Assembly (NCBI GenBank): GCA_964604995.1
Contig: CAZSAD010000005.1
Coordinates: 3,221 to 67,220 of the forward strand
From: an uncultured Methanosarcinales archaeon
Lineage (GTDB): Archaea; Nanobdellota; Nanobdellia; Woesearchaeales; JABMPP01
Direction of reading: 5' to 3'
Length of the DNA: 64,000 nt
Shown piece by piece: positions 4,869 to 37,079 of this stretch. The notes below the pieces were generated by a model, which was given only the letters and a program-made list of their open reading frames with translations, did not search any database and was not told the origin of the DNA. Both the position numbers and the translations under genes were made by a program. Numbering within the stretch: the stretch's first letter is position 1; each line of letters opens with the position of its first letter.

Positions 4869-5121
4869 TTAATCCAATCAATCAAATCTAAGTTTTATCA
4901 TTTATATTTTTATCATTTATTAGTTTTTCTTCAATTTTCCCTCCCCTCTATCTTTCTCGAAAAACTATAGAAAAATATATAAACTCATTAGGCAATACTC
5001 GACTTTAGTTGGGTATAAAATGGTATTTTGGCATTTATTGTTTAAAATAATGCTTTTATGATTTTTGTCGTTAGAAATATGGCACATTTCAAATAAAATA
5101 CCTATATAGCGTGGGTTTACT

Positions 5122-6218: not shown

Positions 6219-9200
6219 ATGAAACTTAAACAAATCTTAATAATTGTAATTCTAATACTATTTTCATCAATTATCCTTTTATCAAATACTAAAAATTCAT
6301 CTGCACGTATTTTAGATTCTGACTCTGATGGTGTTTTAGATGAAGATGATTTATGTCCAGATACTTCTTTTTTCGCACCAGTTGATTTTAACGGTTGCTC
6401 ATGTGATCAAAAAAGTGTAAATAATACTTGCGTACCTGACAATAATGAATGTACTGGTTATTGCGGTGGTCCTAAGGCACAGTGCAATTATCCTTTAACT
6501 GGAGATTTGCTAAACCAGGGATTAATTTCTTGCAATGCAACTTATTGTGAAAATAATATTGTTCATACTTTCCCACAAACAATGTCTTCAAAATATTGTG
6601 TAGATGGTAATTTATTTAATAGAACTTCTTGTCAAGAAACACTTTCTTATCTCAAAGATTGCGGTAAAATACCCCTACCCATAAATCAAACAATAAATTT
6701 AACAAATCAAACCAATCAAACTATTCAACTTGGTTATTTAATTATTGAATCAAATCCTAGTAGTGCAGATATTTATCTAAACAATATTTATCAAAATAAA
6801 ACTCCAAGAAATTTTGAACTTAAATCAGGAACTTATAGACTAAATTTAATCAAAGAAGATTATATCCCTTATTCTTCGAATATCAAAATAAATTCTGGTC
6901 AACTTACTGATTTATTTATCAATCTAAATCCAGAAATTATCAATCCTTCAACATTTACATGCAATGACACTGACGGTGGAATATATTTTGAAACATTTGG
7001 AAAAGTTGCTTTGTGTAAATATTCAAATTCAACAATTGATTACTGCTTAAATTATTCTGATACTTGTGGATTGGCAGAAAATGGAAAAACATTAACTGAA
7101 TTTTATTGTCAAAATTCACAAGTAAAAAATATGACAACTGTTTGTTCAGGCCCATGTAAATATGGTGCATGTTCGCAGCAAAGCAATTTGCTACCAGTTG
7201 CAGTAATTTCAAGACCAATGCTTGGAGATTTAACTTATGTTAATGAACCTATTTACTTTAGTGGTATAAAAAGCTATGATCCTGAAGGAATGCCTTTAAC
7301 TTATACTTGGTTAATAGAAAATACTAAATCGTTTAATGTAACTACAACGCATACATTTTTAACAACTGGTATTAAATTTGCAACTTTAATTGTTTCAGAT
7401 GGAACCTATGTTGTAAATACTTCTATTAGTTTAAACATTCAAGAAAAAATAAATGGAACTAATCAAACAAATGAAACTAATACTTCCCTTTGTACTCTTA
7501 AAACAGCATTATGGTCAACTTTAGCAGCATACGAAGGGGATAATATTTCTTTATTTGTTTATGGTCCAAATTGTCAAAATAAACAACTTAATATTACAAT
7601 TTGGAGAAGAGATTTTTGGTTAGATGAATACATAGATTCAATTCCTTACCAATCATCTAATTCATTAGGTTTATTTAATGCAAGTTGGAAAGTAATTTGG
7701 AAAAATAGTGGTTGGAATTTATTTGATAACACTAAATATTATTTTGTTGCTCAAATAAAAAATTCTGAAGAAAAAATAATTTCTCCTGAAAATTTAGATG
7801 TTAAAAAATCTTCTTCTAATAATATTTTAATAACTGAACCTGGAAATTACAAATTGCAAATGAATTGGTATGATACTTCTGGAAGAACTTGGTTATCAGT
7901 AGGAGATGGTGTTTTTGGTAAATTGTTGCAAGCAGCAAAAAATGGTGATCTTTACGTAGATGTTATAATAGAAAAAAATTTTGCTATTAATGATAAATTA
8001 CTTTTAACTGATGGAACAAATAACATTGAAGTTTTAAATTATTCTCGAATTAAACTTCTTAGACCTACAACAGCAAAAAATCCACTTCTTAATGATTCAC
8101 TTAACGATTCATTTCAAACTATTGTTCGAATATACCTAAACACTCCTATTCAAAACAACTATTTATTAAATGCAATAGTAAGGCAATATTCTTTAGATTA
8201 TTCTGGAAATCTTCAAAATCTTAATGATACCATTGATTTAGGATATTTACAATATGGTGCAACTCCCATAACAAGCCATTTAACACAATGGATAAGCATT
8301 TTCAATGGTTATAATAGAACAATATTCCCTGTTGTATATTCAAATGATTCTAATTATTATTATGTTAATCAATTAAATTCAAGTAAATGGGATTTAACTT
8401 TTGACGACGGAGTAAGATTTGATTTCCCTTATAATGATGGTAATTTTCAAATTGTAAAATCCAATACGATACCTTCTTCTCCAAGTTTTGATGTTGAATT
8501 ATATGGGGCATCCATCCATTATGTTGATTTTCTTAATCCTAGCAGAAATTTTACTTTTTGGCTCAAAAACAATATACAAGAAAATAATTCCCCTTATCTT
8601 GGATTTGTTTATGGTTTAACAAATACATCTGATGAATGGATAAGCGGTGAATTTGGTGTTATTTATTATAAAGGAATCCCATACAATATAACAATTAAGC
8701 GTAGTGATGATTATACTCTACCTGTAAACCTAACAATTTCAAAAGGAACAACAAGTGTAAGTTACTTACTTTATCAAAAACAATTAACTTTCCCCTTATT
8801 CGATGGTTTAGCATTTTATATTCAAAGTTGGCCAGTTGGTTACAATTTGACAATTCTTAGTGTTGGAAAACTAGTTTACAATTTGAATTTTACAGTGCCT
8901 GTAATACAATATGGTGAAACAAAAAAAATTAATGGAACACTGCCTGCAGTAGCACCAGGCTTCTACTTGGTTATGTTTGATGCTTCACATCAAAATGATA
9001 TTGCACCATGGAACAATTTCCAAAATCCAACATATTATGTGCAAAAACAATATATTGACCTTGCAGTAAATATTCCTCCATACGATTATCTTATTGAAAC
9101 CAATACAACAACAAAATTCAATTTTACAATATCTAATTTAGGAACTATTGATGCAAAGAATAGCACTATAACAATAAATAAAACTAGTAATAATTATAAT

Positions 9201-12200
9201 TTTGGAAACAACACTCAAATAATTAAAATACCTTTGCCAATTATTCACCCTCTTGAAACATTAAATTTTTCATTTAATTATACATCAGAAAATCCTGAAG
9301 AGTTCTATTTTAAAATAAAGGTTCAAACAGAAAATGATACAGATAATGGGAATAATTATGTATATAGTTATGTAAATTCAGTTTTAGCAGGATTTAATTT
9401 ATATGTCATGTCTGCAGAAAGAAAATATCCTACGCCTTCAGAAGAAGGTTTTGTAACACTTCATACAGAAAATCTTGGTAGTAGGCCTTCTTCACAGTTT
9501 ACAGCTTACCATACAAATATAAAAGCTCTTCAATCATTTACAACTTGGATAAATCAAAATTATTCAACAGAAATCGAAGGTGTGATTTATAATATTACAC
9601 TTCTTGAAGTAGTAAAAACACAAGAATATAGTACATTAGGAAAAGCAAAGTTCAAACTTAATTATAATAATGGAACAGAAATATTTGAACTTTTTGCAGG
9701 AGAAACTATTGAATTATCAACTGGCAAATTCTTTGGTTTGATATCTACTCCAAATACTTTTTATGCATATTCTCTTATTGGAAATCTTCGCTATGTGAAT
9801 TCATTTACAGTGCCACCAATACCAATAAAATCTAATTGGGTTAAAATTAATATTACTCTTAAAAATGATACTCTTGGAAACTATTATTCATTCATAAGTT
9901 TTTATCATGCAAACGATACTTCTTTAGAAGATAATTTTGCTGTTGTTTCTTATACAATAAATCCAGATGGTCCAAATATAAGAACATTTAGTGATTGGTA
10001 TTATTACACTACAACAATAAATGAAACAATTCCAATACCTTTTACTCTTGAAAATATTGGCAATAGATATTCAGGTGATGTAAATTTCAGAATAAATATA
10101 TCTGACAAATCGCAGTTTGATCCAAATTTTAACTCTACTTTGCTCTCAGAATTTACATTGCCAGGTCTTTACCCTGGAGAAACTTCTAGTTATTCCTATA
10201 ATTTTACCTGGCAAAAAAGTGGAAAATATTTCTTATTCATGCAAGCGAACATATCAAATGACACTAACCCTTACAATAATCTTCATTATGTTACAATAAT
10301 GGTTGTTAAAAACACAACTAATGTTTCAGCAGAATTAACACTTTCAACATTAAAAGATAATTATGAAATTGGGGAAATAATTAATTTAACTGATCCGCCT
10401 GCAATAATTAATTCAAAAGCAACGCTTTCTCCAATACAATTTTCAAATTCAATAACTGGCAATGCCATTAATTTACCAACTGAACAATTTACTAATTTTG
10501 ATGATACATCTATGTTTTATCAAACCAGAAAAAATTATCCAACTAATTATACAAATAAAACTTTAGAATACAATGGTTATATTGTAAAATTCAAAAAAGA
10601 GCCAATAACAAAACAAAAAGTAAATTTAGAAAATGAAATAATAAAGCAAAAACAAATCACTCAAACATTATCTTTAACAAATAACAATCAAATAGCTGCA
10701 AGTAAACCAAATCAACAAAATTCTTTATTATTAACTGCATCAGATAAATTACAAGTTAATACTAAATTAATAGCTTACCAAGCAGAAATACAATCAGAAC
10801 ACTCTTTAGCAAAAATAGATATTTCTCAAAAATTAAGCAAATCATTAACTAGTAAGATAACAGGGGAATTTACAAAAACATTCAATGGAATTGCACTAGA
10901 TATAACTGATGCAGAAGCCCAACAGTTAAAATCAAGTTTTTATGTTGAAGAAGTTTATCCTAATTACAAAGTCTATGCAACATTAATGGACTCTGTTCCA
11001 TTAATTGGTGCAGATAAAGTTTGGCAAATAAATTCTTATGGAACACCTTGCATCAAATATGGTGGAACTGAAGAATGCTTAACTGGCAAAGGTGTAACAA
11101 TTGCAGTAATTGATACTGGTGTTGATTATACTCATCCTGATTTAGGTGGCTGTTTTGGATCGGGCTGCAAAGTTGCAGGAGGATATGATTTTGTTAGCAA
11201 TGATAATAACCCAATGGATGATAATGGACATGGAACACATGTAGCTGCAACAGCAGCAGGCAATGGAACATTAAAAGGAGTTGCACCTGGTGCAACTATT
11301 TATGCTTACAAAGTTCTTAATAGTGGCGGCTCAGGTTCCACCAATAACATTATTGCAGCAATAGAACGTTCTGTTGATCCGAATAATGATAATGATTTTA
11401 CAGATCATTTAGATATTATTTCCATGAGTCTTGGAGGCTCTGGAACTCCTGATGATCCCTTAAGTCAGGCGGTAGACAATGCAGTTGACAATGGTGTTAT
11501 TGCAGTTATTGCAGCAGGAAATTCAGGTCAGTTCAATACACCATCTATTGGTAGCCCCGGTAATTCTCGAAAAGCAATTACAGTAGGTGCAACATATAAT
11601 AAACATTCTTATAATTATTATTCTGAAATAAAACTCAACGCCACAGTTGGCGGCAGTATGGGTGACACTGATTATTTTGAAAGTATACCTGTTCTTGGTT
11701 CAATGCCTACCAATGCAAATTATCAATTGCATGATTGGATATATGCCGGAACAGGAACCATATCTAATTTTACTTCTAAAAATTTCACAAATAAAATAGC
11801 TTTGATATATTTAGATGGTGTAGAATATCCAGAAATATTATTGGAAAGAGCAATAGCATCAAATGCATATGCTGTAATATTTTATTTCAATCCTTATCCA
11901 AATAAAATTACTGATTATTATTTTCCATTAGCATATGATATTGAAATTCCATCAGCAGTCATTGCTACTAATGATATTACTACTCTTTTTGAATATACTC
12001 AAATAAATCAACCAATAAGTCTTTATTTGAATATTTCATTGGTGACTAATATTACAGATGCAGATAAAGTGCCTTATTTTAGTTCACAAGGTCCATCATT
12101 CGATGAATTTTATGCAATTGGAATCAAACCAGAAATAGTTGCCCCAGGATATGATATTTGTGCTGCTTTGACTTACAATGGTGTTTTTCCAAAATATGAA

Positions 12201-15200
12201 AGAGCATGCGGCCAAGGACATACTCCTCTTTCAGGAACAAGCATGGCAACTCCTCATGTTTCAGGAGCATCAGCACTGCTAAAACAAGCACATCCTGATT
12301 GGGGAAACAAAGAAATAAAATCTGCTTTGATGGTATCTTCAACATCTCTTGGAGAAAATCCAAATATCTTTGGTACCGGAAGAATAAATGTTACATCAGC
12401 ATTACATCCAAGAATTTATTTAAGTGAACCCACTTTGAATTTTGGGCATATTAAATTTAACGACGAAAAAACAATAACATTTACTATAAAAAATTTATTC
12501 CCTGACCAAACTATAATAAATTTAAATTTTTCATCAGTTGATTCCAATGTTCAATTGATTGTCAGTCCAAATGTTGTCAATCTTAATCCTAACGAAGAAA
12601 AACAAGTTACAGTACACTTGAAATATTTGCACGATGAACCCTCTTACTTAACACCTCTTACAAATTATCTTACAATCCAAGGTGATACCAATGCAAAAAT
12701 ACCTTTATTATATTATAAAACTACAAACAGATCAATAGTTGGATTCACTCAAGACCCTGGAGAAATTTCTTCATCATTAATACCACGTTTCTATACATTA
12801 AAACTTAACGATATTAATAACGATGGATATGTTGAGATGTTAGGGGGCAGTAGTGCACTTTTTAGTTTTAACAATTTTGAAAATAATATTTCAGATTATA
12901 ATATTTTATATGCTCCCCCTTGTATTTATGATATGTATAGTGAAGGTTGTTATCCAGATACAGTTGAATCAATAGCTGTTGAAGATTTTAACCATGATGG
13001 AAATAAAGAAATTCTTGTTGGAGGGGTACAAGGATATCTTAGGCTTCTGGAAAAAAATTATAATCCTAAAAATTTGACAAAAACAATAGTTAGTTCAGAA
13101 AACTTTACTTTTGGAAATTATAATTTTACGACATCTATAAATCCATATGGTCAATTAATAGTATCTGCTAAAAATGTTGACAATCCCTTATTTATTACTT
13201 TTTTTAATCTTAGAATTAGTGAAAGTGAATATGATAGTGAATATGGATACATTGAGAATATTATTTTTCATTTGGTAAGTTTGCAAAATGGCATTGCAAT
13301 AGTTGAATTACAAGAAAATGAATATAAACCAACTATGCTAAATAAGTTTAGAGAACAATTATGGGCAATGGACTCAGCAGATTTTAACAATGATGGTTGG
13401 CAGGATGTTGTTTTCTCTTATTCTCCTTTGCCTTTTGTTTATAATGTTTCCATTCTTTTTAATGATGGGAACGGAAATCTAAACAACCTTTATACAATAT
13501 ATAACCTATATGGTAATCAAATTTCTGGTTTAACTGTCGGAGATGTTGATAATAATGGATTTAAAGATGTAATAATAGGATATTCTATTTCTCCTAATAG
13601 CATCTATAAAACCTATGGGGTAACAAAATTACTTAAAAATAATGGCAACAACAAGTTTTATGATAGTGGAGTTATATCTACATATGGCACAGGAATCTCA
13701 GGTCATCCAGAAAATGATATTAATCCAAGAGTTGTACTAGCTGACTTTGACAATGATGGCAATCTTGAACTTGTGATTGGAGATAACAGTGGAAAAATTA
13801 GGATATTAAAGAAAGACAATACTGGCAGATATAATGAAGATTTATTAATAAATAAAGGCCTGCTTTTTGACTTTGGTCAATTATCATGGGGAGTTGCAGC
13901 AAGCGATATTAATAATGATGGTAAAATTGATTTGGTGGTTGCTTCTGCTTCAAGAAATGATTTTTATAGATTTTCACTTTATACTAAATTGAATAATGGT
14001 AATTTTACTAATTTTGCACCAGTTCGTCCAAAATCACAAATAATAAACAATGGAACAATAAATATAACTGGATATTTGTTTATGGATGTTGAACAATTCT
14101 TAGGCAATTCTTGGCAAGGATACCAAATGGTTTATGAAGATACTTTACCAAGAACAATTCCTGCAAATAATGTCCAAGCATTAGATACTATTTGGAACAA
14201 TTATAATATTTCAATTAATAATCCTGGAAAATACAGAGTTCATGCAGAGTTTAGAGATGCATATAGTGGAGAGCCAATTCAAACAACAACTGGCTATCTA
14301 AATAATTATTGGGAGTTTAATGTTAGTGGAACAATTCCAACTTTGCCTTCAGCACAACTAACTTTATCAACATTAAAAGATAATTATGAAACTGGAGAAA
14401 TAATTAATTTAACTGATCCACCAACTGGAGAAATAAACACTGCAAATGTGAATAGACTCGTAAAAAACAATGAAGATTCAATTGCTTTGCTAAATATTTT
14501 AGAAGATGCTGCTGCAAAAAGCAAACAGGAAAATAAATTTTCAGAAGGAATTATTGAACAAACCCCTACCTTTTCAAATCTTCCAAAATATGTTAAAGGA
14601 GAGTTAATAGTAAAACTAAAAAATGATATTTCAAATAAGATTAGTGCCAATGTTGTCAAAACAGATATCAGTACCTTAGACAGTTTAAACAGCAAATATG
14701 GCGTTAAGAATATTGAGAATGTTTTCCCTGCTAAACATGAAAGCTTTTTTGAAAGTTTGGCAAATAATGTAAAACAAACATTCAACATAGAAGTTCCTTC
14801 AAGAGAGTTAAATAAAGTATACAAAATTAAAATTAATCAAAATACAGATGTTGAAAAAGTTGTAAAGGAATACAGTGCAGTTTCTGAAGTTGAATATGCT
14901 GAGCCTAATTATATTTATTATACTAATTTTGTTCCAAATGACAAGCTTTATTCACAGCAATGGTCTCATCAAATAACAAGTGCTGAGATTGCATGGGATA
15001 CTGAAAAAGGAAGCTCTTCTACAATCATTGCAATTATAGATACGGGAGTAGATTATAATCATGAAGATCTTAAAACTAATATATGGCACAACCCCAAAGA
15101 AATTCCAAATAATGGAATCGATGATGATAATAATGGATATGTAGACGATACAATTGGATATGATTTTGTTGATTATCAAGAACTAGTTGATTATTGCAAT

Positions 15201-23366: not shown

Positions 23367-23396
23367 ATAATAAAAAATTGTAAACTAAATAATAAA

Positions 23397-26300
23397 ATGA
23401 AACAAAGCAAAACAAAAATCAGTAGCAAAAATAACAAACTGAAAATAATTAATAATCAAATTTTCATTTTATTATTCATATCTTTATCACTTATTTTCTT
23501 AACTGGTTGCCCATCAGGCGAGGGGATTTATGAAACATCAACAGAAGAATATAATGCAGGCTGGGTTTTGCATAATATTAATGATTCAACATCAACAACT
23601 CTTGAATATAATTCTTCAGAATTAATGATTTATAATGCTTCATTTAATTTTCCAGCAGATAGCCCATTAGATTATGCACATTCTTCATTTTGGATGTACC
23701 CTTATAACGCTAAAGATGATCCAATATTTCTTACTTCAATAGTTTCATTTCCAGTACCCTCAAAAAGAACATATTATTATTACGGTTCAACAGGTGGAGT
23801 CAATTATGATTCTACTTGGGGTACTTTAGAAGATACTTACATAACTTATGAGTATTCTTTTGAACAAGATGAAACACCTTGGGAATTTAAACAAACAGAA
23901 CAAATATTTGGTTATAATTATTATTATACTGCAAGAAAAGTTGTAGAAAAGCAATATGGTATTGCACCATATAAAATTGCAAATTTTGCAGGAAATAGCT
24001 ATAGTTTTTGGGTAGAAGGAAAACTTATTAAAAATCAATTATTGGAAAATCCAGCATATTTAAACAAAGCTTCGCAAGTAGGATTTCCTATTCCTACTCT
24101 AAAAATATCACACAACGGTAATATTACATTAGAGCGAAATTTAGCACAGTATTATCCTCCACCTGACAATGTTTATTCGTGGAATTATTACAATGGCTAT
24201 TTTTATTTTTGGGGGATAAATAATTCGGGTATATATCAAGCAGATATGATTATCCCTACATATTATCCAATTTGGAGCAATGTTGAGCAAACTGTTCAAT
24301 TTTTACTCGAGCAAGATTCAAATAATAATGACCAACTGGCACTTATGTCAAAAATTCCAAAACTTGAATTTTTTTATGTTTCTCCTTATTTTACTTCAGG
24401 TGAAACAATTTTTGTAGTAATCAATTTTTCAAATGAAGTAAATATATCCGCTGTGCAACTTCAATTTTCAACAGATGATATAAATTATGAAACTGTTGTT
24501 TTATCTGGAAACAATAATTATTATTACGCAAATTATACAGCTCCATTTTATGCAGAAAAACTTGATTCATATATTTTCGCAACAACCTATCAAGGATATA
24601 ATTATACTTTAAAAATTGAAAATGTGGCACTTAAAAAAGTGCAGCCAATTATAACAATAACTGGTCCAGATTCTGTTAGCTTATTAGATGAAACAAATTA
24701 TTATGTAGACTGCGAATACACTTTTAAAAATGAACAAAAAAAATGTAATTATGCATTGTTAAATTTAAATCTAAATAATGTGCCAATAAAAAAATATTTC
24801 CCATCTTACAATAATCTAACTACTTTTTCTTTGAAAATTCCAATTAACGCTACTAATAATTTTACACTTTCTTCTTGGTTCGAAGGTAGTGGGAATTTAC
24901 TTGGTGCACAAAGTCAAAATTACCCTGTATCTATTCAAAGGTATGATCATGATTTAAAAATGATTAATTATAAAGTACATTCAAAAATTGTAAACCAAAA
25001 CAATACAATTACTGCAACTATTGCAAATATTGGTATAAATCCAGAATATAATGTTCCAGTAATTTTAGCACCTGAATCAAAATACGGACCAAATGGATTT
25101 TATAGTATATCACATATCCCAGTTATTAATCCTAGAGAAATTGTTGAAGTAAACCTTACATTCATTCCAACTTATAGTGATACTATTTATTTAAATTTAA
25201 CTGTTAATGCATTACTTGATACTAATATTTTCAACAATAACATTTCACTCGAAATCAACCCCAAATTCAATGGGAGCAATATCTATCCGAGAATTAACTA
25301 TCTTGTAAATCCTTTAATTATAAATGTCCCTAATCAAATAAGATTAGATATCCCAAATTCAGGATTGAAAACAGCAACAAATGTTTCATACAAATTTTAC
25401 ATATTTGATTTTATTTCTCCTGATGTTATGTTTGAAGGAACTACTAATTGGAATTATAATAATGTAAATTACTTAATTAATTTATCTTCACCTACACTTA
25501 ATACACATCATGTCACTATAAAATACAATAATCTTATTATTTCAAAACAATTATTTGATAAGGAAGTTCTTGAACTAGACAATAATATTTGCTTTGTAAT
25601 ATATGAAATGTTCAATGATTCAACTATTAACTTTTACCATATTCAATTTAAAGAGTGTATAGTAACTAATTCAAATTTACAGGATATTATTCCAACCTTG
25701 GACAGACAGCCTGTTTATTCTACACTAGTTAATTATACCCCTACTAAAGTTGGATTTTACACATCTTATGTCTCTTTAATTAATAATGAAGAATATTTAT
25801 TGGATAATTTCGATGCTACCTCTTTCCAAGTTACAAAGTCAGGTTATGATTTAAATATTCATTCTTACTTTCAAATACCTCCAACTATCCAATCTAACAG
25901 TAATTTAACTGTTAGGGTTCGGAATGATGGAAATTTAAAATCTCCCCCTAATACTACTACAAAAATCAGGGACGTAATAAATATTAATTCTTGGGATATA
26001 ATAACAAGTACTACTAAAACTATTTTTTATGAGGGGATTACTTATCAAATTACAATCATCCCCCATGTAGAAATTCCATATTTCTTTTCAATCAACATCT
26101 CTTATCTTAATATCACTGAAAATTTTGATTTATACATATCACAAAGTTATAAACTTAACAATTCAGTTATTTTCGCAATTAGTTACTCTTTTAATAGTTC
26201 TTGGTTTGAAATTATATTTGGTAAAGAACATTTCTCTAAAGAGTTTTTAGTTCCTGAAATAAAACCTGGGGGTTATATTGAAACGCAAATTGAAATTCCA

Positions 26301-29300
26301 AACAATACTTATTTTGAACATAGGTTGTTTTCTGAAGTTTTTTCTGATGGAGATAGGGATTTATATAACAACTTTAAATCAAATTGGTATCTAATGGATC
26401 TTCACAATCCTGATATTGCAATTGAGTTAAATTCAAATTTCCCAAATAATTTGCTTGTCAATGAAATAGCATATCTTAATTTTTCTATTAAAAATTATAA
26501 ACAATACAATGCAACAGATATATGGATTACTGTAAATCTAACAAATTCTAATAATATGGGAGAAAAAACAACAACTCTATTTCAAACACATTTAAATTCT
26601 TTAGAAGGATATAGTTCTATTCATTATTTATTTAATTTTACACCAACAGATGTTGGGTATTATCAACTTGATATATTTGCTGAATTAGAAAATGATGATC
26701 ATTTTTATAACAATTATATAAACCTTAATTTCGAAAGCAAAAGAAATGAATCTTACTTACGGTCATATCTTAATATTGAACCATTCTATGATTTATTCCT
26801 TTTAGATACTAATAATTCTATTGATGTGAAACTGAATAATTATGGATTTTTAGAAGTTAAAAATGTTTCAATGGTTCTTTACTTAGATAATAATTTAATA
26901 ATTAATGAGTCAAACATTTACATTGCATCATTTGGTTCCTATTTTTATAATTCTAATTTTATACCAACGCAAAAAAAAGAATATCACTTAAGCTTGCAAA
27001 TTTTTGACAATACTAATAACAGTAATTTGATATATGATTATTGGCAATTTGTTCCAGCAGTTAGACAAATTTCGACTCAAATGCAAATAACTGATATGCA
27101 AGAAAATCCTCAAACAAGATATATTGCAACAAGGCAAGGGGAACTCGGATTTTTCAATGGAACTGCAAATATAAACGTATTAGATGAAATGGAGCATTTT
27201 TCATCTTATTTTGTTGATGAAGAAAGTGAAGAATATTTTGGATTTATGACTCGTTATTCCTATTTTAATGAAACTGAAGAATTAAAAACTCAACTACTTT
27301 GGAATATTGAATCTAATAATTTACATGCTGATTTAATATATTTAAATTACCCAAGCTGGCAATATAGTCAATCTGAAATTAAGTTGATTATCAATCTAAT
27401 TAAACATCCAATAAATACTAATTACTTAAGACTTTTTGGATGCACATTATACAATTTTGAAAATAATTCTTGTTTATCAAATTGGGAAGAAATCAATGGT
27501 GACAATATCAATTTAGATAATAATAACCTTTATGTTAATTCTTGGTTTAACAATTATAAAGCAATAGCTCTTGGTAAAAAGATAACTGGTTCTAGTTATG
27601 ACTTAAATATCAATTCTCATTTTTCAATAATCCCAACTATTCAATCTAATAGTAATTTAACTATTGGAATTTGGAATAATGGTGGTCTAAACTCTCCAGA
27701 TACTACTGCAAAAATTAGAGACGTAATGGATATTAATTCTTGGAGTATAATGGTAAATATCACCCAAGAGTTTTTTTATGATGGAATTACTTATCAATTT
27801 ACAATTACTCCTAACGCAGAAAATTCGAATTTATTTTCAATTAACATTTCTTATCTTAATATCACTGAAACTTTTAGTTTATATCCGCTACAAAATTATA
27901 AACTTAACAATTCAGTTATTTTTGCAATTAAATATTATTTTGGTTACTCTTGGCTTGAAATTATGTTAGGTAAAGAACATTTTTACAAAGAATTTTTATT
28001 ACCTGAAATAAATCCGCAAAGCTACTTTGAAACACAAATTGAAGTTCCAAGTAGCAATAAAATTGAACACATGTTATTTTCTGATGTCTTTTTGGAAGGA
28101 GATGTATATGCTCCTGATAATTTTAATATAAATACTTATCAAGTAGAAACCTTTTATCCAGATGTTGCAATTGAACCAGATCAAAGTTTCCCAAATAATT
28201 TGCTTGTCAATGAAACTGCATATCTTAATTTTTCTGTTAAAAATTATAGAAGTTACAATGCATTTGATATTAAAATTATTGTAAACTTAACAAATTTTGG
28301 GAAGATGGAACAAGAAACAACAACTATATTTAGTGCATACTTAAATTCTTTAGAGGGGTATGGTACTATTCCTTACTTAATCAATTTTACTCCACAAAAT
28401 CTAGGATATTATCAACTTGACATATTTGCTGAATTAGAAAATGATACCTATTTTTACAATAACCACGCAAACCTTTATTTTAGAAGCATGGAAAATGAAT
28501 CTAATTTAAATGTAAATTTTAACATTGAACCTTACTATGATTTATTCATTTTAGATAATAACAACCGTATCAATATAATTCTAGATAATTACGCATTTTT
28601 AGAATTAAAAAATGTTTCAATGATTCTTTATTTAGATAATAATCCAATACTTAATGAGTCAAATATTTACATTACATCATTTGGTTCTTTATTTTATAAT
28701 TACAATTTCACCCCAACGCAAAAAAAAGAATATAATTTAAGTTTACAAATTTTTGACAACACTAATCAGAGTAATTTAATATATAATTATAATCAACTTG
28801 TTCCTGCAGCTAAACAAATTTCAACACAAATACAAATAAGTGATATGCAAGAAAATCCACAAAAAAGATATATTGTAACAAGGCAAGGGGAATTAGGATT
28901 TTTCAATGGAACTGCAAATATAAATATATTAGATGAATACGAGCATTTTTCATCTTATCTTGTTAATGAAGAAGATGAAGAATACTTTGGATTCATGACT
29001 CGTTATTCTTATTTTAATGAAACTGAAAAGTTAACAACACAACTTCTTTGGAATGTTGATTCTGACAATTTACATGCTGATTTAATATACTTAAATTCTC
29101 CAAGTTGGCAATATGAACAATCTGAAATTAAATTTGTTATCAATCTAAATCAACATTCTATTAACACGAATAACGTAACTGTTTTTGGATGTAATAATTA
29201 TATTTATCAAAACAATTCTTGTCTATCAAATTGGGAAGAGATTAATAATGGAGGTGTTATTTTAGATAATAATAACCTTTATGTTAATGCTTGGTTTAAC

Positions 29301-32300
29301 AATTATAAAGCAATAGCTCTTGGTAAAATCATATCTATTGTCCCTACTTCTTCAAATACAAAATTACAAAGCAAATATTCACCAAAAGAAGCATTTTTAA
29401 TCTCAGATAAGAATTGGCAAGATGTTTTAAGTTTAGTTCCACTAACAACCTGGACTGGAAATGAACAAGATACAAATTGGTGCCAAAAAGGAACAGGAAC
29501 ACCAGAAAGCGTTTGTGTTTATCCAACACTTATTTATCATGAAGAAGAATCAAAACCAATCCCACTTATCCCTTATCAGCATTTCAGCTTTGATGTTCAA
29601 GGAGAAGGGAACATGACGCAGTACCTTGCTAATGATTCAGGTATTTTGGTACCTGTAAACACTTCTATACCTGATTGGGTATTTAACCTTGTATTTCCAA
29701 GAACTATCCTTAGTCAAAATATCAACATAACACCAAATGCAACTTATACTATTAATTTTTCATTATCTTCTCCTTCAATGGTTTATGCAAATATACATAA
29801 TTTTACAATATATTATCCTTCATTCCTTATTCCAGAAAACGATACTTTTTTTGTTGTTAATCAAACTTTTTATCCTGGGCAAAAACTTATTTACCAAGTT
29901 ACTTTCAAATCAAATGTTGGGATACCTTTTGATGCAGATTCTTTAATTCATTTTTTGCAGGATTATCAGCCATCCGAAATCAAGTTGATAGGGGATTCTC
30001 CTCCATCTCTGGATGATCTTTTAATCACTCCAGCACCAATCGGTGCAGGACTAAGCTCTTCACAGATTACAAGAATAAATATTTCAGATATTTTTTCTGC
30101 ATGGCAGAATTTTAAAGAATTGGTTTATGTTGAAGACAATTATGGGACAGCAATGGTTGCTTCAACTTATGCTTCACTTATCAATGCACCTCTAGTTGTA
30201 AAAAATTCACAGTTGGATTTTCCAAATATTTTTGTAAACAAAGATGTAATTTGTATTGGTAATGTTACCCCTCTAATTGGGATATGTACTGAATTATATA
30301 ATTCAACACAACTTAATTTTAAGATAGCTCAAATAACACAATCAGATAAATTGATGGTTACTAATCCAAATGATATCAATAAAAAAGTTAATAATTTTTT
30401 CACCCCCGATAAGTCATCGACACCAATAAATGAATTATATTCAAAAAATTCTTTGGCTGCACCAATACTTGCTAGTGCAAAGCACGAAATCTTGGTTCCT
30501 GTGACTTCAGAAAAAGTGAACGAAATAAAAAATATCGTCAAAAATAGTGTTGTGCAGTTCATGCCCGAAATAATCAATAACCCCTCTGGAATTTTAGACA
30601 ACAATTTTGACAATCCAATTTGGCAGATAATAAAAGAAAATATTGGTGATGGAAACAAAGAGATTATTAATAAAAATACTATGGCTTATACCCCCGATTT
30701 TATACCTTCTGACGACAAAATTGCTTGGAGGAGAGATAGTAACCACCTTTTTGTTTATGATCTTTCTAATACAAATCTGAAAACAGTTAGTTTTGCGTCT
30801 TTTCCAGGATATTTAAGCAGCTTCAATATTAAAGGAGATAAACTGGTTTCAAGTATAATTGATTTTGGGAATAATCTTGTTTATTGTAGATTAATATTAA
30901 CAGATTTGGGTAATCCAGGTTCATCAACACTTGTTTTTTCAGGAAATAAAGATTCATGCACTTATTATGATAATTCATTTGATATCACTGAAGATTATAT
31001 TTATTTTACTAAGATGACAACAGTTGATTATTCCAAAGACAGTGTAATTATGAGATATTCTATAAACACCTATTCCACACAAGAAGTATTCAAAGCATCA
31101 TCCCACAATATTTACAGCATCAGGACATTATTTGCAGATGATAATCTCTTGTTTATTTTGGCTTATACTAATTCAGGCAGTGAAATTTTTATGTTTAATA
31201 TGACAGATAACACTACGAGAACTATTACAACGACTTTTTATGATATCCTGGATATGTTTTATGTATCAGGAAAGATTGTGTGGTCTCAAGGTTATGATTA
31301 TAATACTCCTTTATATTCCTTGCGTGTTTATAATATCTTAACAAACCAAACAACTTTGATTACGGATTCATTGAGGATGAATGGTGGCAATGGTGTTGTA
31401 TCATCCCCAAAAAGCTTGAATAATATTGTAACTTATGTAGTTGATAATGAAACTGCAAATAAGCAATGTGAAATGACTAAATTATCCTGCTCAACTTTAT
31501 CTCCTTGTAATAATTATTGCACTAATGATCATTCTTATTGCAGTAGCAATTTGGATTGTGATGGTAATGATTGCATGACTGACCAGTGCATACCAACAGA
31601 TTATTACGCTTATAACATTTCAAGTGCACAATCTAAATTAATATCTTCAGGAAAAATCATGGCTTCTCCATTGTTTGACGGGGATTACCTTTATTATGGC
31701 AATAAGTTAATGGGCACATACACTATTGACGGCTACTTTACAGTAATAGGTTCAAATATATCGATCCCTTACAAAGAAGATATGGATCCTGGTGCAATGT
31801 ATGATAATTTTAAATATCTTGATGCATCTGATTATGCAGATATTTATAATGAAGATATGCATCCGGACATGGCAGTTGGCAGAATACAAGGTATAACTTC
31901 AACTGATGTTGCTTCATACATTGCAAGGGATATTTTCTTATCTCACAGTTTAAGACTCGCCTCTGCTAAAATGCTTGCATCTTCTTTTGATTATGAAATA
32001 CATACTGCAGAAAACTGGACTCAAACATTTAATTATTCCAGATACAATGCAACATGCAATATTTTACCAACAGCAACTTCAGGAACAGATTTCAACTGTA
32101 AGATTGAAGAAAATACTACCCTTTGGCCAAATGAATACAAAAATAAAGGTTTGGTGCAATATTTGGATCATGGTGCACCAAATTGGGCAGGAATTAATTC
32201 CAATCAAATCCCTTATTTATCAAACACATTACTATTCAATGATGCATGTTCAACATGTTCAACTTATGATGACCAATCATTTTGTAGTAATGCAATTCGC

Positions 32301-32528
32301 AGAGGAGCATTATTACATGCTGGTGCAGCTTCTATTGCATGGACAGGGAATAATGTTTATATGAACATGGTAAATGGTATTTATTACGACAATCTTACTT
32401 TAGGCCAGGCATTTTCAAAAAGCTTTGAATATAATTATTATAGGTATATGACTATGATTTTAGGAGACCCGACATTAAATATAAACGCACAGCCTGAAAT
32501 AATCAGCCCGCTAGAGCAACAATGGTAA
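23397..32528 (+). CDS. Giant (3043 aa) secreted protein with a tandem ~584-aa module duplication and a C-terminal gingipain-like (C25, clan CD) cysteine-peptidase domain
   Basis: Signal peptide with a lipobox-like LTGC. Modules at 25838-27590 and 27591-29343 (SGYDLNIHSYFQIPPTIQSNSNL... vs SSYDLNINSHFSIIPTIQSNSNL...). C-terminal YLDHGAPNWAGINSNQIPYLSNTLLFNDACSTCS resembles the gingipain His/Cys dyad region GHGSETAWG...NSNQLPFIFDVACVNG. Putative His codon at 32169-32171, Cys codon at 32247-32249. Confidence 0.8.
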   Translation: MKQSKTKISSKNNKLKIINNQIFILLFISLSLIFLTGCPSGEGIYETSTEEYNAGWVLHNINDSTSTTLEYNSSELMIYNASFNFPADSPLDYAHSSFWMYPYNAKDDPIFLTSIVSFPVPSKRTYYYYGSTGGVNYDSTWGTLEDTYITYEYSFEQDETPWEFKQTEQIFGYNYYYTARKVVEKQYGIAPYKIANFAGNSYSFWVEGKLIKNQLLENPAYLNKASQVGFPIPTLKISHNGNITLERNLAQYYPPPDNVYSWNYYNGYFYFWGINNSGIYQADMIIPTYYPIWSNVEQTVQFLLEQDSNNNDQLALMSKIPKLEFFYVSPYFTSGETIFVVINFSNEVNISAVQLQFSTDDINYETVVLSGNNNYYYANYTAPFYAEKLDSYIFATTYQGYNYTLKIENVALKKVQPIITITGPDSVSLLDETNYYVDCEYTFKNEQKKCNYALLNLNLNNVPIKKYFPSYNNLTTFSLKIPINATNNFTLSSWFEGSGNLLGAQSQNYPVSIQRYDHDLKMINYKVHSKIVNQNNTITATIANIGINPEYNVPVILAPESKYGPNGFYSISHIPVINPREIVEVNLTFIPTYSDTIYLNLTVNALLDTNIFNNNISLEINPKFNGSNIYPRINYLVNPLIINVPNQIRLDIPNSGLKTATNVSYKFYIFDFISPDVMFEGTTNWNYNNVNYLINLSSPTLNTHHVTIKYNNLIISKQLFDKEVLELDNNICFVIYEMFNDSTINFYHIQFKECIVTNSNLQDIIPTLDRQPVYSTLVNYTPTKVGFYTSYVSLINNEEYLLDNFDATSFQVTKSGYDLNIHSYFQIPPTIQSNSNLTVRVRNDGNLKSPPNTTTKIRDVININSWDIITSTTKTIFYEGITYQITIIPHVEIPYFFSINISYLNITENFDLYISQSYKLNNSVIFAISYSFNSSWFEIIFGKEHFSKEFLVPEIKPGGYIETQIEIPNNTYFEHRLFSEVFSDGDRDLYNNFKSNWYLMDLHNPDIAIELNSNFPNNLLVNEIAYLNFSIKNYKQYNATDIWITVNLTNSNNMGEKTTTLFQTHLNSLEGYSSIHYLFNFTPTDVGYYQLDIFAELENDDHFYNNYINLNFESKRNESYLRSYLNIEPFYDLFLLDTNNSIDVKLNNYGFLEVKNVSMVLYLDNNLIINESNIYIASFGSYFYNSNFIPTQKKEYHLSLQIFDNTNNSNLIYDYWQFVPAVRQISTQMQITDMQENPQTRYIATRQGELGFFNGTANINVLDEMEHFSSYFVDEESEEYFGFMTRYSYFNETEELKTQLLWNIESNNLHADLIYLNYPSWQYSQSEIKLIINLIKHPINTNYLRLFGCTLYNFENNSCLSNWEEINGDNINLDNNNLYVNSWFNNYKAIALGKKITGSSYDLNINSHFSIIPTIQSNSNLTIGIWNNGGLNSPDTTAKIRDVMDINSWSIMVNITQEFFYDGITYQFTITPNAENSNLFSINISYLNITETFSLYPLQNYKLNNSVIFAIKYYFGYSWLEIMLGKEHFYKEFLLPEINPQSYFETQIEVPSSNKIEHMLFSDVFLEGDVYAPDNFNINTYQVETFYPDVAIEPDQSFPNNLLVNETAYLNFSVKNYRSYNAFDIKIIVNLTNFGKMEQETTTIFSAYLNSLEGYGTIPYLINFTPQNLGYYQLDIFAELENDTYFYNNHANLYFRSMENESNLNVNFNIEPYYDLFILDNNNRINIILDNYAFLELKNVSMILYLDNNPILNESNIYITSFGSLFYNYNFTPTQKKEYNLSLQIFDNTNQSNLIYNYNQLVPAAKQISTQIQISDMQENPQKRYIVTRQGELGFFNGTANINILDEYEHFSSYLVNEEDEEYFGFMTRYSYFNETEKLTTQLLWNVDSDNLHADLIYLNSPSWQYEQSEIKFVINLNQHSINTNNVTVFGCNNYIYQNNSCLSNWEEINNGGVILDNNNLYVNAWFNNYKAIALGKIISIVPTSSNTKLQSKYSPKEAFLISDKNWQDVLSLVPLTTWTGNEQDTNWCQKGTGTPESVCVYPTLIYHEEESKPIPLIPYQHFSFDVQGEGNMTQYLANDSGILVPVNTSIPDWVFNLVFPRTILSQNINITPNATYTINFSLSSPSMVYANIHNFTIYYPSFLIPENDTFFVVNQTFYPGQKLIYQVTFKSNVGIPFDADSLIHFLQDYQPSEIKLIGDSPPSLDDLLITPAPIGAGLSSSQITRINISDIFSAWQNFKELVYVEDNYGTAMVASTYASLINAPLVVKNSQLDFPNIFVNKDVICIGNVTPLIGICTELYNSTQLNFKIAQITQSDKLMVTNPNDINKKVNNFFTPDKSSTPINELYSKNSLAAPILASAKHEILVPVTSEKVNEIKNIVKNSVVQFMPEIINNPSGILDNNFDNPIWQIIKENIGDGNKEIINKNTMAYTPDFIPSDDKIAWRRDSNHLFVYDLSNTNLKTVSFASFPGYLSSFNIKGDKLVSSIIDFGNNLVYCRLILTDLGNPGSSTLVFSGNKDSCTYYDNSFDITEDYIYFTKMTTVDYSKDSVIMRYSINTYSTQEVFKASSHNIYSIRTLFADDNLLFILAYTNSGSEIFMFNMTDNTTRTITTTFYDILDMFYVSGKIVWSQGYDYNTPLYSLRVYNILTNQTTLITDSLRMNGGNGVVSSPKSLNNIVTYVVDNETANKQCEMTKLSCSTLSPCNNYCTNDHSYCSSNLDCDGNDCMTDQCIPTDYYAYNISSAQSKLISSGKIMASPLFDGDYLYYGNKLMGTYTIDGYFTVIGSNISIPYKEDMDPGAMYDNFKYLDASDYADIYNEDMHPDMAVGRIQGITSTDVASYIARDIFLSHSLRLASAKMLASSFDYEIHTAENWTQTFNYSRYNATCNILPTATSGTDFNCKIEENTTLWPNEYKNKGLVQYLDHGAPNWAGINSNQIPYLSNTLLFNDACSTCSTYDDQSFCSNAIRRGALLHAGAASIAWTGNNVYMNMVNGIYYDNLTLGQAFSKSFEYNYYRYMTMILGDPTLNINAQPEIISPLEQQW
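25838..29343 (+). repeat. Tandem duplication of a ~1750-nt (~584 aa) coding module in two diverged copies
   Basis: Protein-level collinearity across the whole module. Identical DNA islands include ttggtttaacaattataaagcaatagctcttggtaaaa at 27543-27580 and 29291-29328, aaacttaacaattcagttatttt, and ccaacgcaaaaaaaagaatat. Confidence 0.8.
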
Positions 32529-32564
32529 ACTTCAATTAATAAAAAACAAAATAAAAACAAAAAT

Positions 32565-33803
32565 ATGCCAGCGAAAACAAAAATCCGGAAAGTGAAAAAT
32601 CTGAATTATTTAAAAATTTCAATATTTTTAGTGCTATTTCTTTTCTCATTACTTGAAACAAAAAGCATTGAAATTCCAAAGATTGCATTAAATATTCAGG
32701 ACTCTTTTGTAAAAAATGACATTATAAATTTTAATTACACAATTTCTTTAGTTGGTAATAACAAGGAACCTTTACAGATTGCATATTTTACTTCGGTGAA
32801 GTGTCCAAATGCACCCCAAGGGCTTATAGAATTGAAAAATGCAATATTAACAAACAACAATAGTGTTACAGGAACTCATTTGGATTTCAAAGTCAGTAGT
32901 AGTATTACACAGCAAGCATGTAACGCATCAGTTACAATAATGCAGCCATTTTCCTTTAGCCAATATAAATCGTTTGATATAATTACAGACCCATTGATTT
33001 TTTTATACATTTCAACTGATAAAAAAGTATATTTTATGACCGAAGAAATAATTATAAAATCAACGATAAATGTGTTTCCAGATGATGTTCGTTCTTCAAT
33101 TATATTTCCCGATGGTACAAAAAAAGATATAACTTTACCATATAAATTTAAGCCAGATCAAGCAGGAACTTATACAGTTTTTGTTTCTGCATCCAAATCT
33201 AGTTATGAATCTTCAGAGGCCCATTATTCATTTGCAGTAATTGCCAAGCAAGCACAGTTCAAATCAGCATCACAATGTAATTCAAACAACATTTGCGACC
33301 AAGGTGAAACAACTCAAAATTGTCCGCAAGATTGCGCATCAAAATCAATTGTAACAAAATCAACTACTACAATTTCAACTACAACAAATACTAAAGATGC
33401 AACTGAAAAACCATCACCCTTACTTATTACACCTAAAGAAAACAAACCAAGTGAAATTAAATCAATTAATCCTCAATCAAATGGAATAATTTATGCATTA
33501 TTTATTGGAATTGCTGTTTTCATTTTACTTTTCTTAATTGTTGAAACTAAAAGAAAATCACTTTCTTTTGATAGATTGCATGAACTCGCAAAAGAAAATA
33601 AAGTTCATACAGTTCATATTGAATTAGATAAATTAGTTAATTATATTTTTGCAGCAAGAAAATATGGTTTTCCAGATACGGAAATACAAAAAAAATTAAC
33701 TGATTTAGGTTGGATTGGAAAAGATATTGATAATGCTTTTATTGAAGCAGACAGTCAAAAAGAAGAAGCAGAAGAAATTGATGCTAATAAACAAATGCCT
33801 TAA
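32565..33803 (+). CDS. Type-I membrane protein (412 aa) carrying a 4-Cys mini-module shared with the upstream giant
   Basis: Signal peptide, then an ectodomain with QCNSNNICDQGETTQNCPQDC, a Thr/Ser-rich stalk, TM helix IIYALFIGIAVFILLFLIV and a short cytoplasmic tail. 37 nt downstream of giant 2 on the same strand. Confidence 0.6.
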   Translation: MPAKTKIRKVKNLNYLKISIFLVLFLFSLLETKSIEIPKIALNIQDSFVKNDIINFNYTISLVGNNKEPLQIAYFTSVKCPNAPQGLIELKNAILTNNNSVTGTHLDFKVSSSITQQACNASVTIMQPFSFSQYKSFDIITDPLIFLYISTDKKVYFMTEEIIIKSTINVFPDDVRSSIIFPDGTKKDITLPYKFKPDQAGTYTVFVSASKSSYESSEAHYSFAVIAKQAQFKSASQCNSNNICDQGETTQNCPQDCASKSIVTKSTTTISTTTNTKDATEKPSPLLITPKENKPSEIKSINPQSNGIIYALFIGIAVFILLFLIVETKRKSLSFDRLHELAKENKVHTVHIELDKLVNYIFAARKYGFPDTEIQKKLTDLGWIGKDIDNAFIEADSQKEEAEEIDANKQMP

Positions 33804-33812
33804 AAATAAAAT

Positions 33813-34841
33813 TTATTTAAGTAATTCTTTCAAAACTTTTTCTTTCAATTCATCTGGACTTGTTATTGCACCTTTATGCTTTTGTAAAAATTCATCAACT
33901 TTTTCTTTTGGCAAAATATCGCATTTAGAAAGATAAATAAATATCTTTTTTTCAAATCCATGCACAACTTTGTATAATTTATCCTGATCTTTTAATGGGT
34001 ATGGCTCAGTTAAATCAAAAACATAAACAAAAATATCAGCGCAGTATTTCATTGCTAAATATGCTTGCTGCTCAATGTTATTCATTTTATTGAATCTATT
34101 TAATGTGCCAGGTGTATCAATCACTTGTATTTTCTCCTCTTTTTTAACCCCTTCTTCGCCTTCTTCAGTACTTTCAATCATTCTTTTTGTTTTAAAATAA
34201 GATACATTAATTCCTCTTGTTGTAAATGCATAATCTGAAATTTCAGGCATTGAGCCTGTTAATTTGTAAAGAAGAGTTGTTTTTCCAACATTTGGAAAAC
34301 CCGCAATTACAATTGTTTTTGTTTCAGTTTTTACTGAAGGGAATTCTTTCATAGTTTTTCTTGCATATTCCAAGAATTTTAGTGCCTTATCTGCTTGGTA
34401 TACAAATGAACTTAATCTTCCAAAAAATTCTCTTCTGTGTTTATTTAAATCATCAAAATCTCTGCTTCCTTTAATTTTAGGAACATAAAAATTATGGATT
34501 CTATCAAATCTTTCAGATGCCCATCCAATTGTACCTAATGATTTTTTTAGCTGATAATAATCTATTGTTGTTCTAACAAGCTCATTGTAAAATGGTGGCA
34601 GCTCAGAAATACTTGGAAAACCCTTAACTATATTAAAAAAAGAAGTTACTAAGGAGCTTTTCACTGTTTGCATTCTAGCTAGTTCAACATATTTTAATTT
34701 ATCAAATCTGCTTATATGTTTGCTGCCAAGTTTTCTTTTTCCTGCATTTTTGGCAACTAATGCCATTTTTTGCCCATTTCTAAATGCTTGATCTAAATAT
34801 TCCTTAGCAGTTTCGACATTTGTTAGGTTCTGAAAGTTCAT
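33813..34841 (-). CDS. NOG1-family GTP-binding protein (archaeal Nog1/GTPBP4 homolog)
   Basis: N-terminal NOG1-type domain; G1 motif FPNVGKTTLLYKLTGS; G3 motif DTPG. Confidence 0.75.
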   Translation of the reverse strand: MNFQNLTNVETAKEYLDQAFRNGQKMALVAKNAGKRKLGSKHISRFDKLKYVELARMQTVKSSLVTSFFNIVKGFPSISELPPFYNELVRTTIDYYQLKKSLGTIGWASERFDRIHNFYVPKIKGSRDFDDLNKHRREFFGRLSSFVYQADKALKFLEYARKTMKEFPSVKTETKTIVIAGFPNVGKTTLLYKLTGSMPEISDYAFTTRGINVSYFKTKRMIESTEEGEEGVKKEEKIQVIDTPGTLNRFNKMNNIEQQAYLAMKYCADIFVYVFDLTEPYPLKDQDKLYKVVHGFEKKIFIYLSKCDILPKEKVDEFLQKHKGAITSPDELKEKVLKELLK

Positions 34842-34931
34842 TTGTACCAGTATATAGAAAAAGAGTTACCTTTTTAAATGCCCCTCTTTTCTATAAGTTT
34901 GCTGAGGCTACTCTATTTGAGGTAAGTTCTC

Positions 34932-34937
34932 GGGAGG
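34932..34937 (+). promoter_or_regulatory. Shine-Dalgarno gggagg, 9 nt upstream of the rps6e ATG
   Basis: Canonical GGAGG. Confidence 0.45.
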
Positions 34938-34946
34938 ATTGAGAAT

Positions 34947-35354: not shown

Positions 35355-35454
35355 TTTTAATTAATTAAATTAACCAAATAAATAATATTTTATTTTAATT
35401 ATTTTTATTATATTGTTTTAAACAATTAAACCACAAGGGGTGGTTTTTTAACTC

Positions 35455-37035: not shown

Positions 37036-37079
37036 TTTTTAATCAATTCTTAATTTTTATTTTAAACTCTGTTTAACAT

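Follow-up and report, generated by a model that had tools for sequence, protein, structure and literature searches.

The stretch of DNA analysed here, referred to below as the window, is a 64,000-nt (nucleotide) section of contig CAZSAD010000005.1 from an uncultured archaeon, and all coordinates refer to the whole of it. The open reading frame (ORF) listing revealed three consecutive genes, A, B and C, all encoded on the + strand and jointly spanning 27,585 nt, in agreement with the initial annotation, which had described three consecutive same-strand genes of 27.6 kb. Gene A (6219–23366, + strand) encodes 5715 amino acids (aa); its ORF opens at 6180 and, from the ATG at 6219, the protein starts with MKLKQILIIVILILFSS, a signal-peptide-like N-terminus. 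Gene B (23397–32528, + strand) encodes 3043 aa and gene C (32565–33803, + strand) encodes 412 aa. The A–B spacer is 30 nt and the B–C spacer 36 nt, each one nucleotide shorter than first reported (31 and 37 nt); both are A-rich and, when read by eye, an oligo-T run was absent from both. The guanine-plus-cytosine (GC) content is ~29% throughout the window, with no compositional break at the locus, and at 29% GC ORFs of 17 kb and 9 kb cannot arise by chance. What is new at this locus is a subfamily of C25 peptidases, represented by the C-terminal unit of B, that has a dedicated and unnamed family of membrane partner proteins, represented by C.

The C25-like unit of gene B

The B protein has an N-terminal hydrophobic segment (aa 17–41) and no other transmembrane (TM) segment; this is followed by CARDB-like arrays recognised by Pfam and then by the C-terminal C25-like unit. 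A lipobox-like LTGC is found at the end of the hydrophobic segment (aa 35–38, 23499–23510). Elsewhere in this archaeal genome, on the − strand of the window, there is a Lit-like ORF (45183–45908; PF07314, lipoprotein intramolecular transacylase, E 2e-23), which together with the LTGC of B may point to lipoprotein-type anchoring. The CARDB-like region includes a tandem duplication of ~590 aa (25815–29336, + strand), the two copies of which (25815–27587, aa 807–1397, and 27567–29336, aa 1391–1980) share 68.5% amino acid and 79% nucleotide identity. This suggests a recent expansion of the CARDB-like display region. In relatives of B the N-terminal region is variable and encodes discoidin, dockerin, LamG or FG-GAP domains; carbohydrate-binding module (CBM)-type domains were also seen.

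The C25-like unit (29346–32525, + strand, aa ~1984–3043) consists of alpha/beta domains, a beta-propeller insert, a Cys-rich loop and a catalytic subdomain with the gingipain fold. The propeller (30618–31445, + strand, aa ~2408–2683) was recognised from the secondary structure of the model and from matches to Kelch, TolB and S9-peptidase propellers. The ~275-aa propeller and the Cys-rich loop precede the catalytic subdomain in B and its closest relatives; most family members lack the propeller, and the units of most homologues are only ~520–650 aa long. The N-terminal alpha/beta domains of the unit matched CW_binding_2 in two of 48 aligned members. The catalytic subdomain of B (31734–32462, + strand, aa 2780–3022) contains the catalytic residues His2925 (codon 32169–32171) and Cys2951 (codon 32247–32249), and the unit carries the motifs VGRIQG (31872–31892) and GDPT (32463–32474).

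The initial annotation described B as ending in a gingipain-like cysteine peptidase, and named a failure of hidden Markov model (HMM) searches to recover a C25 domain as the result that would speak against this. Such a failure was indeed what the direct search of B returned: PF01364 (C25) was not matched by B, either whole or in pieces, even at E<=10, and a search of the PDB sequences with the C-terminus of B (phmmer) returned noise only. The negative result was overturned by the homologues of B, by their profile and by the predicted fold. A homologue search with aa 1971–3043 of B returned 190 proteins, with E-values down to 1e-185, nearly all of which are precomputed as PF01364; a precomputed Pfam C25 match is also recorded for a 383-aa truncated copy of B in L003. 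The 190 homologues are labelled as Nanoarchaeota and as Woese-, Pace-, Aenigm-, Micr- and Diapherotrites-type archaea, with a few Parcubacteria/Patescibacteria. Re-scanning six of them placed PF01364 in the last ~250 aa, at 32–60 bits in five (the cutoff being 23 bits) and at 19.7 bits in the sixth (P0002). Across the alignment, 38 of the 48 members matched PF01364 at E<=1e-3, the best with an E-value of 1.4e-16.

When the family profile was searched against all PDB sequences there were exactly four matches, all of them gingipains: Kgp (4tkx and 4rbm, E 3e-5) and RgpB (4ief and 1cvr, E 5e-5 to 1.4e-4). In the alignments with Kgp and RgpB, the DHG of the family coincides with the catalytic His and its D-A-C-S with the catalytic Cys. 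Both residues of this dyad are conserved in the family (His in 194/197 and Cys in 192/194), and the VGR and GDP motifs are also kept. Fold comparison of the model showed the unit of B to have the caspase-like alpha/beta catalytic fold of the gingipains. By profile, fold and dyad, the C-terminal unit of B belongs to family C25 of clan CD, in which it represents a divergent subfamily. As it combines the gingipain fold with an intact His-Cys dyad, the unit is most likely an active cysteine endopeptidase.

In fold and dyad, the closest point of comparison is provided by the Porphyromonas gingivalis gingipains (RgpB and Kgp; MEROPS C25, clan CD; PDB 4IEF, 1CVR, 4RBM), but the unit of B shares only ~14–17% identity with them and fails the Pfam model. 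It lies at the extreme C-terminus of its protein, without the IgSF domain or the T9SS (type IX secretion system) C-terminal domain (CTD) of the gingipains, and it has extra alpha/beta domains and, in B, the beta-propeller. Additionally, its hosts are archaeal and its gene is followed by a gene for a type I membrane partner, which gingipains lack. Export as T9SS cargo was considered and rejected, as the organism is archaeal and none of the three proteins had a Pfam match to a CTD (Por_Secre_tail-type). A C-terminal TM segment was found in none of 120 B-type homologues, and an N-terminal hydrophobic segment was the only one in 81 of the 92 complete ones.

Gene C and its linkage to C25-unit genes

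Hydropathy and a structural model (pLDDT, predicted local distance difference test, 84.3) showed C to be a type I membrane protein composed of a signal peptide, an ectodomain, a TM helix and a cytoplasmic tail, which bears out the initial description of a 412-aa protein of this type. The ectodomain (32673–33242, + strand) comprises two beta-sandwich (Ig/MG-like) domains (aa 37–139 and 147–226), in which C80, C119, P182 and G201 are invariant. It is followed by a 4-Cys mini-module, CNSNNICDQGETTQNCPQDC (33276–33335, + strand, aa 238–257), and by a disordered stalk rich in Thr, Ser and Pro that extends to ~33473 (pLDDT <50). The TM segment (33474–33554, + strand, aa 304–330) was identified by hydropathy and is helical in the model. 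The tail contains a three-helix domain (33624–33791, + strand, aa 354–409) that has no Pfam match and carries the motif GFxxxxIxxxLxxxGWxxxxIDxAF, which is limited to a subset of the family (for example P0127, P0130, P0143, P0146 and P0194). Identical copies of gene C were found on short contigs from groundwater metagenomes.

A word-index search returned only C itself and one protein 58% identical to it, and an alignment query added four more. The picture of C as an orphan that these searches gave was overturned by a profile search. C and five relatives were combined into a profile, and an exhaustive search with it against 1.84 billion representatives (50%-identity clusters) revealed a family of 906 clusters at E<=1e-3, 314 of them at E<=1e-30. 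Members are typically 255–340 aa long and consist of a signal peptide, two beta-sandwiches, usually a 4-Cys knob, a stalk, a TM helix and a short tail. The family has no Pfam or NCBIfam model and no sequence relative in the PDB. Among its members, as distant homologues of C, are the ORFs that come next downstream of the two best B homologues, at L006 (13651–14637, phmmer 61 bits) and L010 (from 13975).

For the analysis of synteny, the alignment of the C25 unit was run against GTDB at one genome per species, using search patterns that are biased toward close relatives. This yielded 139 relatives, from which 80 loci were kept, and the ORFs at these loci were classed by HMMs for the C family, the C25 unit and the subtilase (S8) modules of A. 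The 80 loci contained 82 C25-unit genes. Of these, 65 had a C-family gene directly downstream and in the same orientation, two were fused to one in the same ORF and two more had one 0.7–2.1 kb away; a further eight C25-unit genes were at a contig end and could not be assessed, and for five the C-family gene was absent despite there being room for it. A link between the two genes was thus seen for 69 of the 74 C25-unit genes that could be assessed (93%), and the called-gene coordinates of the pair overlapped or left a gap of <40 nt. Approaching the pair from the C side, with two C-family proteins (P0129 and P0162), gave the same picture, with a C25-unit ORF directly upstream on 3/3 assessable contigs. 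Fusions were found in both orders: P0119 encodes a C-like domain (aa 18–232), the C25 unit and then a dockerin-like tail, whereas in the fusions at L074 and L088 the C25 unit comes first and the C-like domain after it. These observations exclude that B and C are adjacent by chance.

Most of the 80 loci are labelled DPANN, and the pair occurs in metagenome-assembled genomes (MAGs) labelled Nanohalarchaeota. A few loci labelled ‘Methanosarcinales’ have a GC content of 28–36%, and this label is doubtful. The labels of five of the 80 are bacterial (Patescibacteria/Parcubacteria for three, Omnitrophota for one and ‘uncultured bacterium’ for one); these are unconfirmed, and the Pfam matches of the flanking genes at L034, L051 and L089 were not domain-diagnostic for them. 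Tandem cassettes were observed at L018 and L087, and several MAGs encode two loci with differing N-terminal domains (L078/L079, L044/L061, L039/L082, L027/L054, L048/L049 and L052/L053). The copies of the cassette look like a paralogous, diversifying surface family.

Interpretation of the B–C pair

The reading we favour, to which we assign a probability of roughly 0.55, is that the B–C cassette of DPANN archaea encodes a cysteine peptidase/adhesin tethered to the membrane at the cell surface, with A as an independent neighbour. According to this reading B would be exported via its N-terminal signal or lipobox-like segment and would display its variable N-terminal binding region, which in this genome is made up of the CARDB-like arrays. 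C, translated from the next ORF and with a stalk assumed to be glycosylated, would bind the C25-like unit and hold B, otherwise without an anchor, on the surface of the cell. We infer this binding and tethering, as well as co-transcription; a physical interaction is indirectly supported by the natural fusions (P0119, L074 and L088). The tethered protease-adhesin would then cleave proteins captured by the variable region of B. Its targets would most plausibly be proteins on the surface of a host or of a neighbouring cell, or else proteins from the environment that supply peptides. A host or neighbour surface target would fit the concentration of the family in presumed episymbionts. The analysis supports what was initially proposed about the proteins and their source, namely secretion or a surface location in a DPANN-type archaeon with a small genome.

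Several observations weigh against the cassette reading. B itself is below every Pfam C25 threshold, and its peptidase activity and specificity are predicted only. The partner is absent for 5/74 assessable C25-unit genes, and the ectodomain of C yields generic beta-sandwich matches only. The N-terminal hydrophobic, lipobox-like segment of B could anchor the protein without C. Furthermore, S8 genes lie directly after the pair at L019, L025 and L032, which is estimated to be somewhat above chance, and a loose functional link to subtilases is possible.

The arrangement of B and C has an analogue in SlaA and SlaB of the Sulfolobales, which are encoded by adjacent genes and are, respectively, a large anchorless outer protein and a small type I membrane protein with beta-sandwiches, a stalk and a C-terminal TM helix. 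The likeness is one of arrangement only, drawn by analogy. In contrast to SlaA/SlaB, the B–C pair is multi-copy and variable and includes a protease unit. No description of the pair was found in the literature on DPANN C25/gingipain proteins and giant surface proteins, and it has no name in Pfam or NCBIfam; the initial annotation likewise recognised no named system in the three-gene arrangement.

A possible but clearly less favoured explanation is that B and C constitute an extracellular nutritional protease for peptide scavenging, with no role between cells, the N-terminal domains of which would bind detrital polymers. In sediment archaea and MAGs, extracellular peptidases of both families (C25 and S8) are routinely read as nutritional (PMC8359207, PMC9563170). 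The dockerin, discoidin or CBM-type domains on relatives of B also speak for this explanation and, as far as is known, DPANN archaea lack amino-acid biosynthesis. Against this, the homologues are concentrated in ultra-small, presumed episymbiotic lineages, although the search was biased toward close relatives. The nutritional explanation is biochemically compatible with the cassette reading and differs from it only in the target.

The role of C is the subject of another explanation, drawn by analogy with the gingipains, which we regard as unlikely. C may act in trans as a regulator or substrate of the C25 unit, either as a prodomain-like inhibitor or chaperone or as an IgSF-like domain. In P0119 the C-like domain is directly N-terminal to the C25 unit, as is the prodomain of a gingipain, and at L074 and L088 it follows the unit, as does the IgSF domain. 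About half of the B-type proteins end ~20 aa past GDPT and have no Ig domain in cis, and the tight translational coupling of the two genes (overlap or <40 nt) would suit a stoichiometric partner.

It is more doubtful still that the C25 unit is a processing enzyme or transpeptidase, which might cut B to free the passenger, as the cysteine protease domain (CPD) of MARTX and large clostridial toxins does, or might couple proteins to the C stalk or the envelope in the manner of PorU or GPI8. The C25-like unit and the C-family protein would, in that case, be a sortase- or autoprocessing-like surface display/processing system of ultra-small episymbiotic archaea (with PorU, GPI8 and the MARTX CPD as models), covalently attaching passengers at the membrane stalk or releasing them from it on cue. 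Interchangeable adhesin or enzyme passengers would then mediate attachment to, and remodelling of, the host surface, and the copies in some bacteria of the candidate phyla radiation (CPR) or the Omnitrophota would have arrived by horizontal transfer. The clan CD families C25, C13 and C80 include transpeptidases and autoprocessing domains, which provide precedents for such an activity. The passengers N-terminal to the unit are highly variable, the unit has a membrane protein as its partner, and its dyad is strictly conserved. PorU, the sortase/signal peptidase of type IX secretion, is likewise a C25-family surface enzyme with membrane-bound partners and offers a possible non-degradative model. 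However, a dedicated sortase would be expected to be single-copy, and PorU is a single dedicated enzyme, whereas here there are several units per genome, some in tandem (L018 and L087), fused to many different passengers. T9SS components and the CTD were also absent from the Pfam scans, and a conserved sorting signal at the C-terminus was not seen, no search aimed at one having been made.

A large share of microbial diversity belongs to DPANN archaea and CPR bacteria, which apparently live attached to other cells; to our knowledge, the molecular basis of their host attachment and exploitation is mostly unknown. The analysis turns a single locus into a general, testable object, namely a two-gene cassette and an unnamed partner family of >900 sequence clusters. 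It gives annotators a new family to name and experimentalists a defined pair. As the pair is found in Nanohalarchaeota-labelled MAGs, the cultivated nanohaloarchaeal systems are worth a first look.

Gene A, the upstream cluster and the remainder of the window

The domains of A were determined by a Pfam scan of overlapping pieces. The N-terminal part encodes, in order, a signal peptide, PEGA (aa 172–239), PKD (aa 341–404) and two CARDB domains (aa ~955–1045 and 1261–1347). Peptidase_S8 was found three times (aa 1623–2054, 2934–~3400 and 5138–5411), with E-values of 7e-69 to 2e-113 for whole pieces and 125–216 bits for single modules. The motifs DTG, HGTH and GTSMA are present in this order in each module, which identifies all three as members of S8 (PF00082). 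The initial description of A as having three complete subtilase modules and adhesion-type domains was therefore correct, with full catalytic triads in all three modules.

Module 1 (10578–12380, + strand) consists of an I9 prodomain (aa 1454–1586) and an S8 domain (aa 1623–2054; D1632/H1671/S2008) with a ~155-aa PA-like insert. It is followed by an Ig-like domain and then by an FG-GAP (integrin-alpha-type) beta-propeller (12810–13958, + strand, aa 2198–2580; FG-GAP_3 E 7e-22, four stretches). Module 2 (14598–16418, + strand) has a fervidolysin-type N-prodomain/S8_N (aa 2794–2907), an S8 domain (aa 2934–~3400; D2941/H3021/S3318) and a PA domain (aa 3214–3289). A pectinesterase/NosD-like beta-helix begins at aa ~3492, and the ~1450 aa after its start have no Pfam match; this region contains a 4-Cys mini-module, CGNNLCEGNETVQSCPIDC (20703–20759, + strand, aa 4829–4847). 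Module 3 (21366–22451, + strand) comprises an I9 prodomain (aa 5050–5107) and an S8 domain (aa 5138–5411; D5145/H5184/S5365), and A ends in a 300-aa tail after it. The only hydrophobic segment of A is N-terminal and there is no C-terminal TM helix.

Modules 1 and 3 share 67.6% identity over their N-terminal half, whereas module 2 is only 25–27% identical to the others; comparison of the sequences indicates that modules 1 and 3 are recent paralogues. Three complete prodomain and S8 modules in one chain are rare: a second catalytic Ser motif was present in at most four of 82 related metagenomic S8 ORFs. Subtilases normally cleave off their prodomains autocatalytically and, because each catalytic module of A is preceded by its own prodomain, A is probably a self-cleaving polyprotein that yields about four fragments. 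In their S8 triad, I9 or fervidolysin-type prodomains and PA inserts, the modules resemble subtilases of the pyrolysin, fervidolysin and C5a-peptidase type, from which A differs in having three complete modules in one 5715-aa chain.

As a giant (>5000 aa) DPANN protein with predicted serine-protease and adhesion domains, A also resembles the SPEARE proteins, which have been proposed to act in host interaction. These giant surface proteins (PMC6642349) have since been reinterpreted and their protease assignment disputed (PMC10266531), whereas the three S8 modules of A are strong Pfam matches with complete triads. The most conserved part of the SPEARE proteins of Nanohaloarchaeota is a C-terminal TM segment with a cytoplasmic ATPase (ResIII/VirB4-like) (PMC6642349, PMC10266531). 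A was rejected as a member of this group, as it has no TM segment beyond the signal peptide and no ResIII, helicase or VirB4 Pfam match anywhere in its sequence.

The initial annotation grouped A, B and C into one unit. The B–C half of this proposal stands, on the linkage in 69/74 cases, the fusions and the check from the C side; the membership of A does not. An S8 ORF was present within 10 kb of the pair at only 6/80 loci (as large S8 proteins directly after the pair at L019, L025 and L032, and within 10 kb at L034, L068 and L070). Each of these neighbours has a single S8 module, none being multi-module, and they lie on the other side of the pair from A. In the reverse direction, no C25-unit or C-family ORF was found at any of 80 metagenome loci encoding the closest relatives (33–59% identity) of the third S8 module of A. 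The best homologues of B are flanked by SMC or helicase genes. The position of A beside B and C is lineage-specific and A is not a conserved component. At L034, in the MAG with the unconfirmed Omnitrophota label, a canonical full-length Pfam C25 peptidase (8207–10972, 208 bits) with TIG and dockerin domains was observed between the C25-unit/C pair and the S8 ORF, the whole constituting a secreted-protease cluster.

The 4-Cys module had been put forward as a distinctive feature shared by A and C. It is present in both, but it is not distinctive: it was found in 70/146 C-family representatives, in 12 C25-unit ORFs, in three S8 ORFs and in nine other ORFs of these loci. This promiscuity rules it out as a specific link between A and C.

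A single system of three components, A, B and C, serving surface proteolysis or host interaction and perhaps coupled to the pilus genes upstream, is the least probable of the explanations and, with 74/80 pair loci lacking an S8 gene within 10 kb and 0/80 A-like S8 loci having the pair, is largely refuted by synteny. In its favour are the encoding of all genes between 16 and 33803 on one strand with spacers of 23, 30 and 36 nt that lack an oligo-T terminator, the six loci with S8 neighbours listed above and a weak CARDB-like similarity between A and B. The tempting idea of a giant protein with three subtilase modules acting in the same system as B and C is thereby removed, and A remains an unusual candidate for a self-processing polyprotein.

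Upstream of A there is a cluster of six pilin-like ORFs on the + strand (16–639, 765–1451, 1557–2033, 2092–2544, 2668–3189 and 5122–6195), which by eye have class-III (archaeal type IV pilin-like) N-termini, for example KRGQ|AALEFLMTYGWA. The class III signal motif is visible in all six; Pfam Class_IIIsignal matched only ORF 1557–2033, below threshold (19.6 vs 23.7 bits). The last of the six stops 23 nt ahead of gene A. No pilus ATPase or platform gene was identified within the window. The cluster also includes a coiled-coil ORF (3944–4534, + strand). Between this ORF and pilin-like ORF 5122–6195 there are 587 nt (4535–5121) with no ORF of >=100 aa and no Rfam match, which could contain a promoter, an unannotated small gene or an RNA.

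Downstream, gene C is followed by a convergent NOG1 GTPase gene, then by S6e and eIF2-gamma and, further on, by L10e. These housekeeping neighbours identify the genome as archaeal. A contig assembled from SRR22387759 in Logan (L174, 144–7142) encodes a C-family gene followed by L10e, NOG1, S6e and eIF2-gamma. As these neighbours match 33813–40115 of the window, the contig derives from a syntenic relative of the source genome; it ends just upstream, and the position of B falls outside it. The window contains no tRNA or Rfam element. Genes for an MscS-type mechanosensitive channel (38331–39428, − strand) and triosephosphate isomerase (42974–43741, − strand) are ordinary housekeeping genes, and the locus belongs to the chromosome and not to a mobile element. 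Further on, a − strand block (52658–63964) contains large ORFs of 722, 588, 1407 and 1038 aa, which have no Pfam match except for two PEGA domains in the last and may encode further, putative surface proteins.

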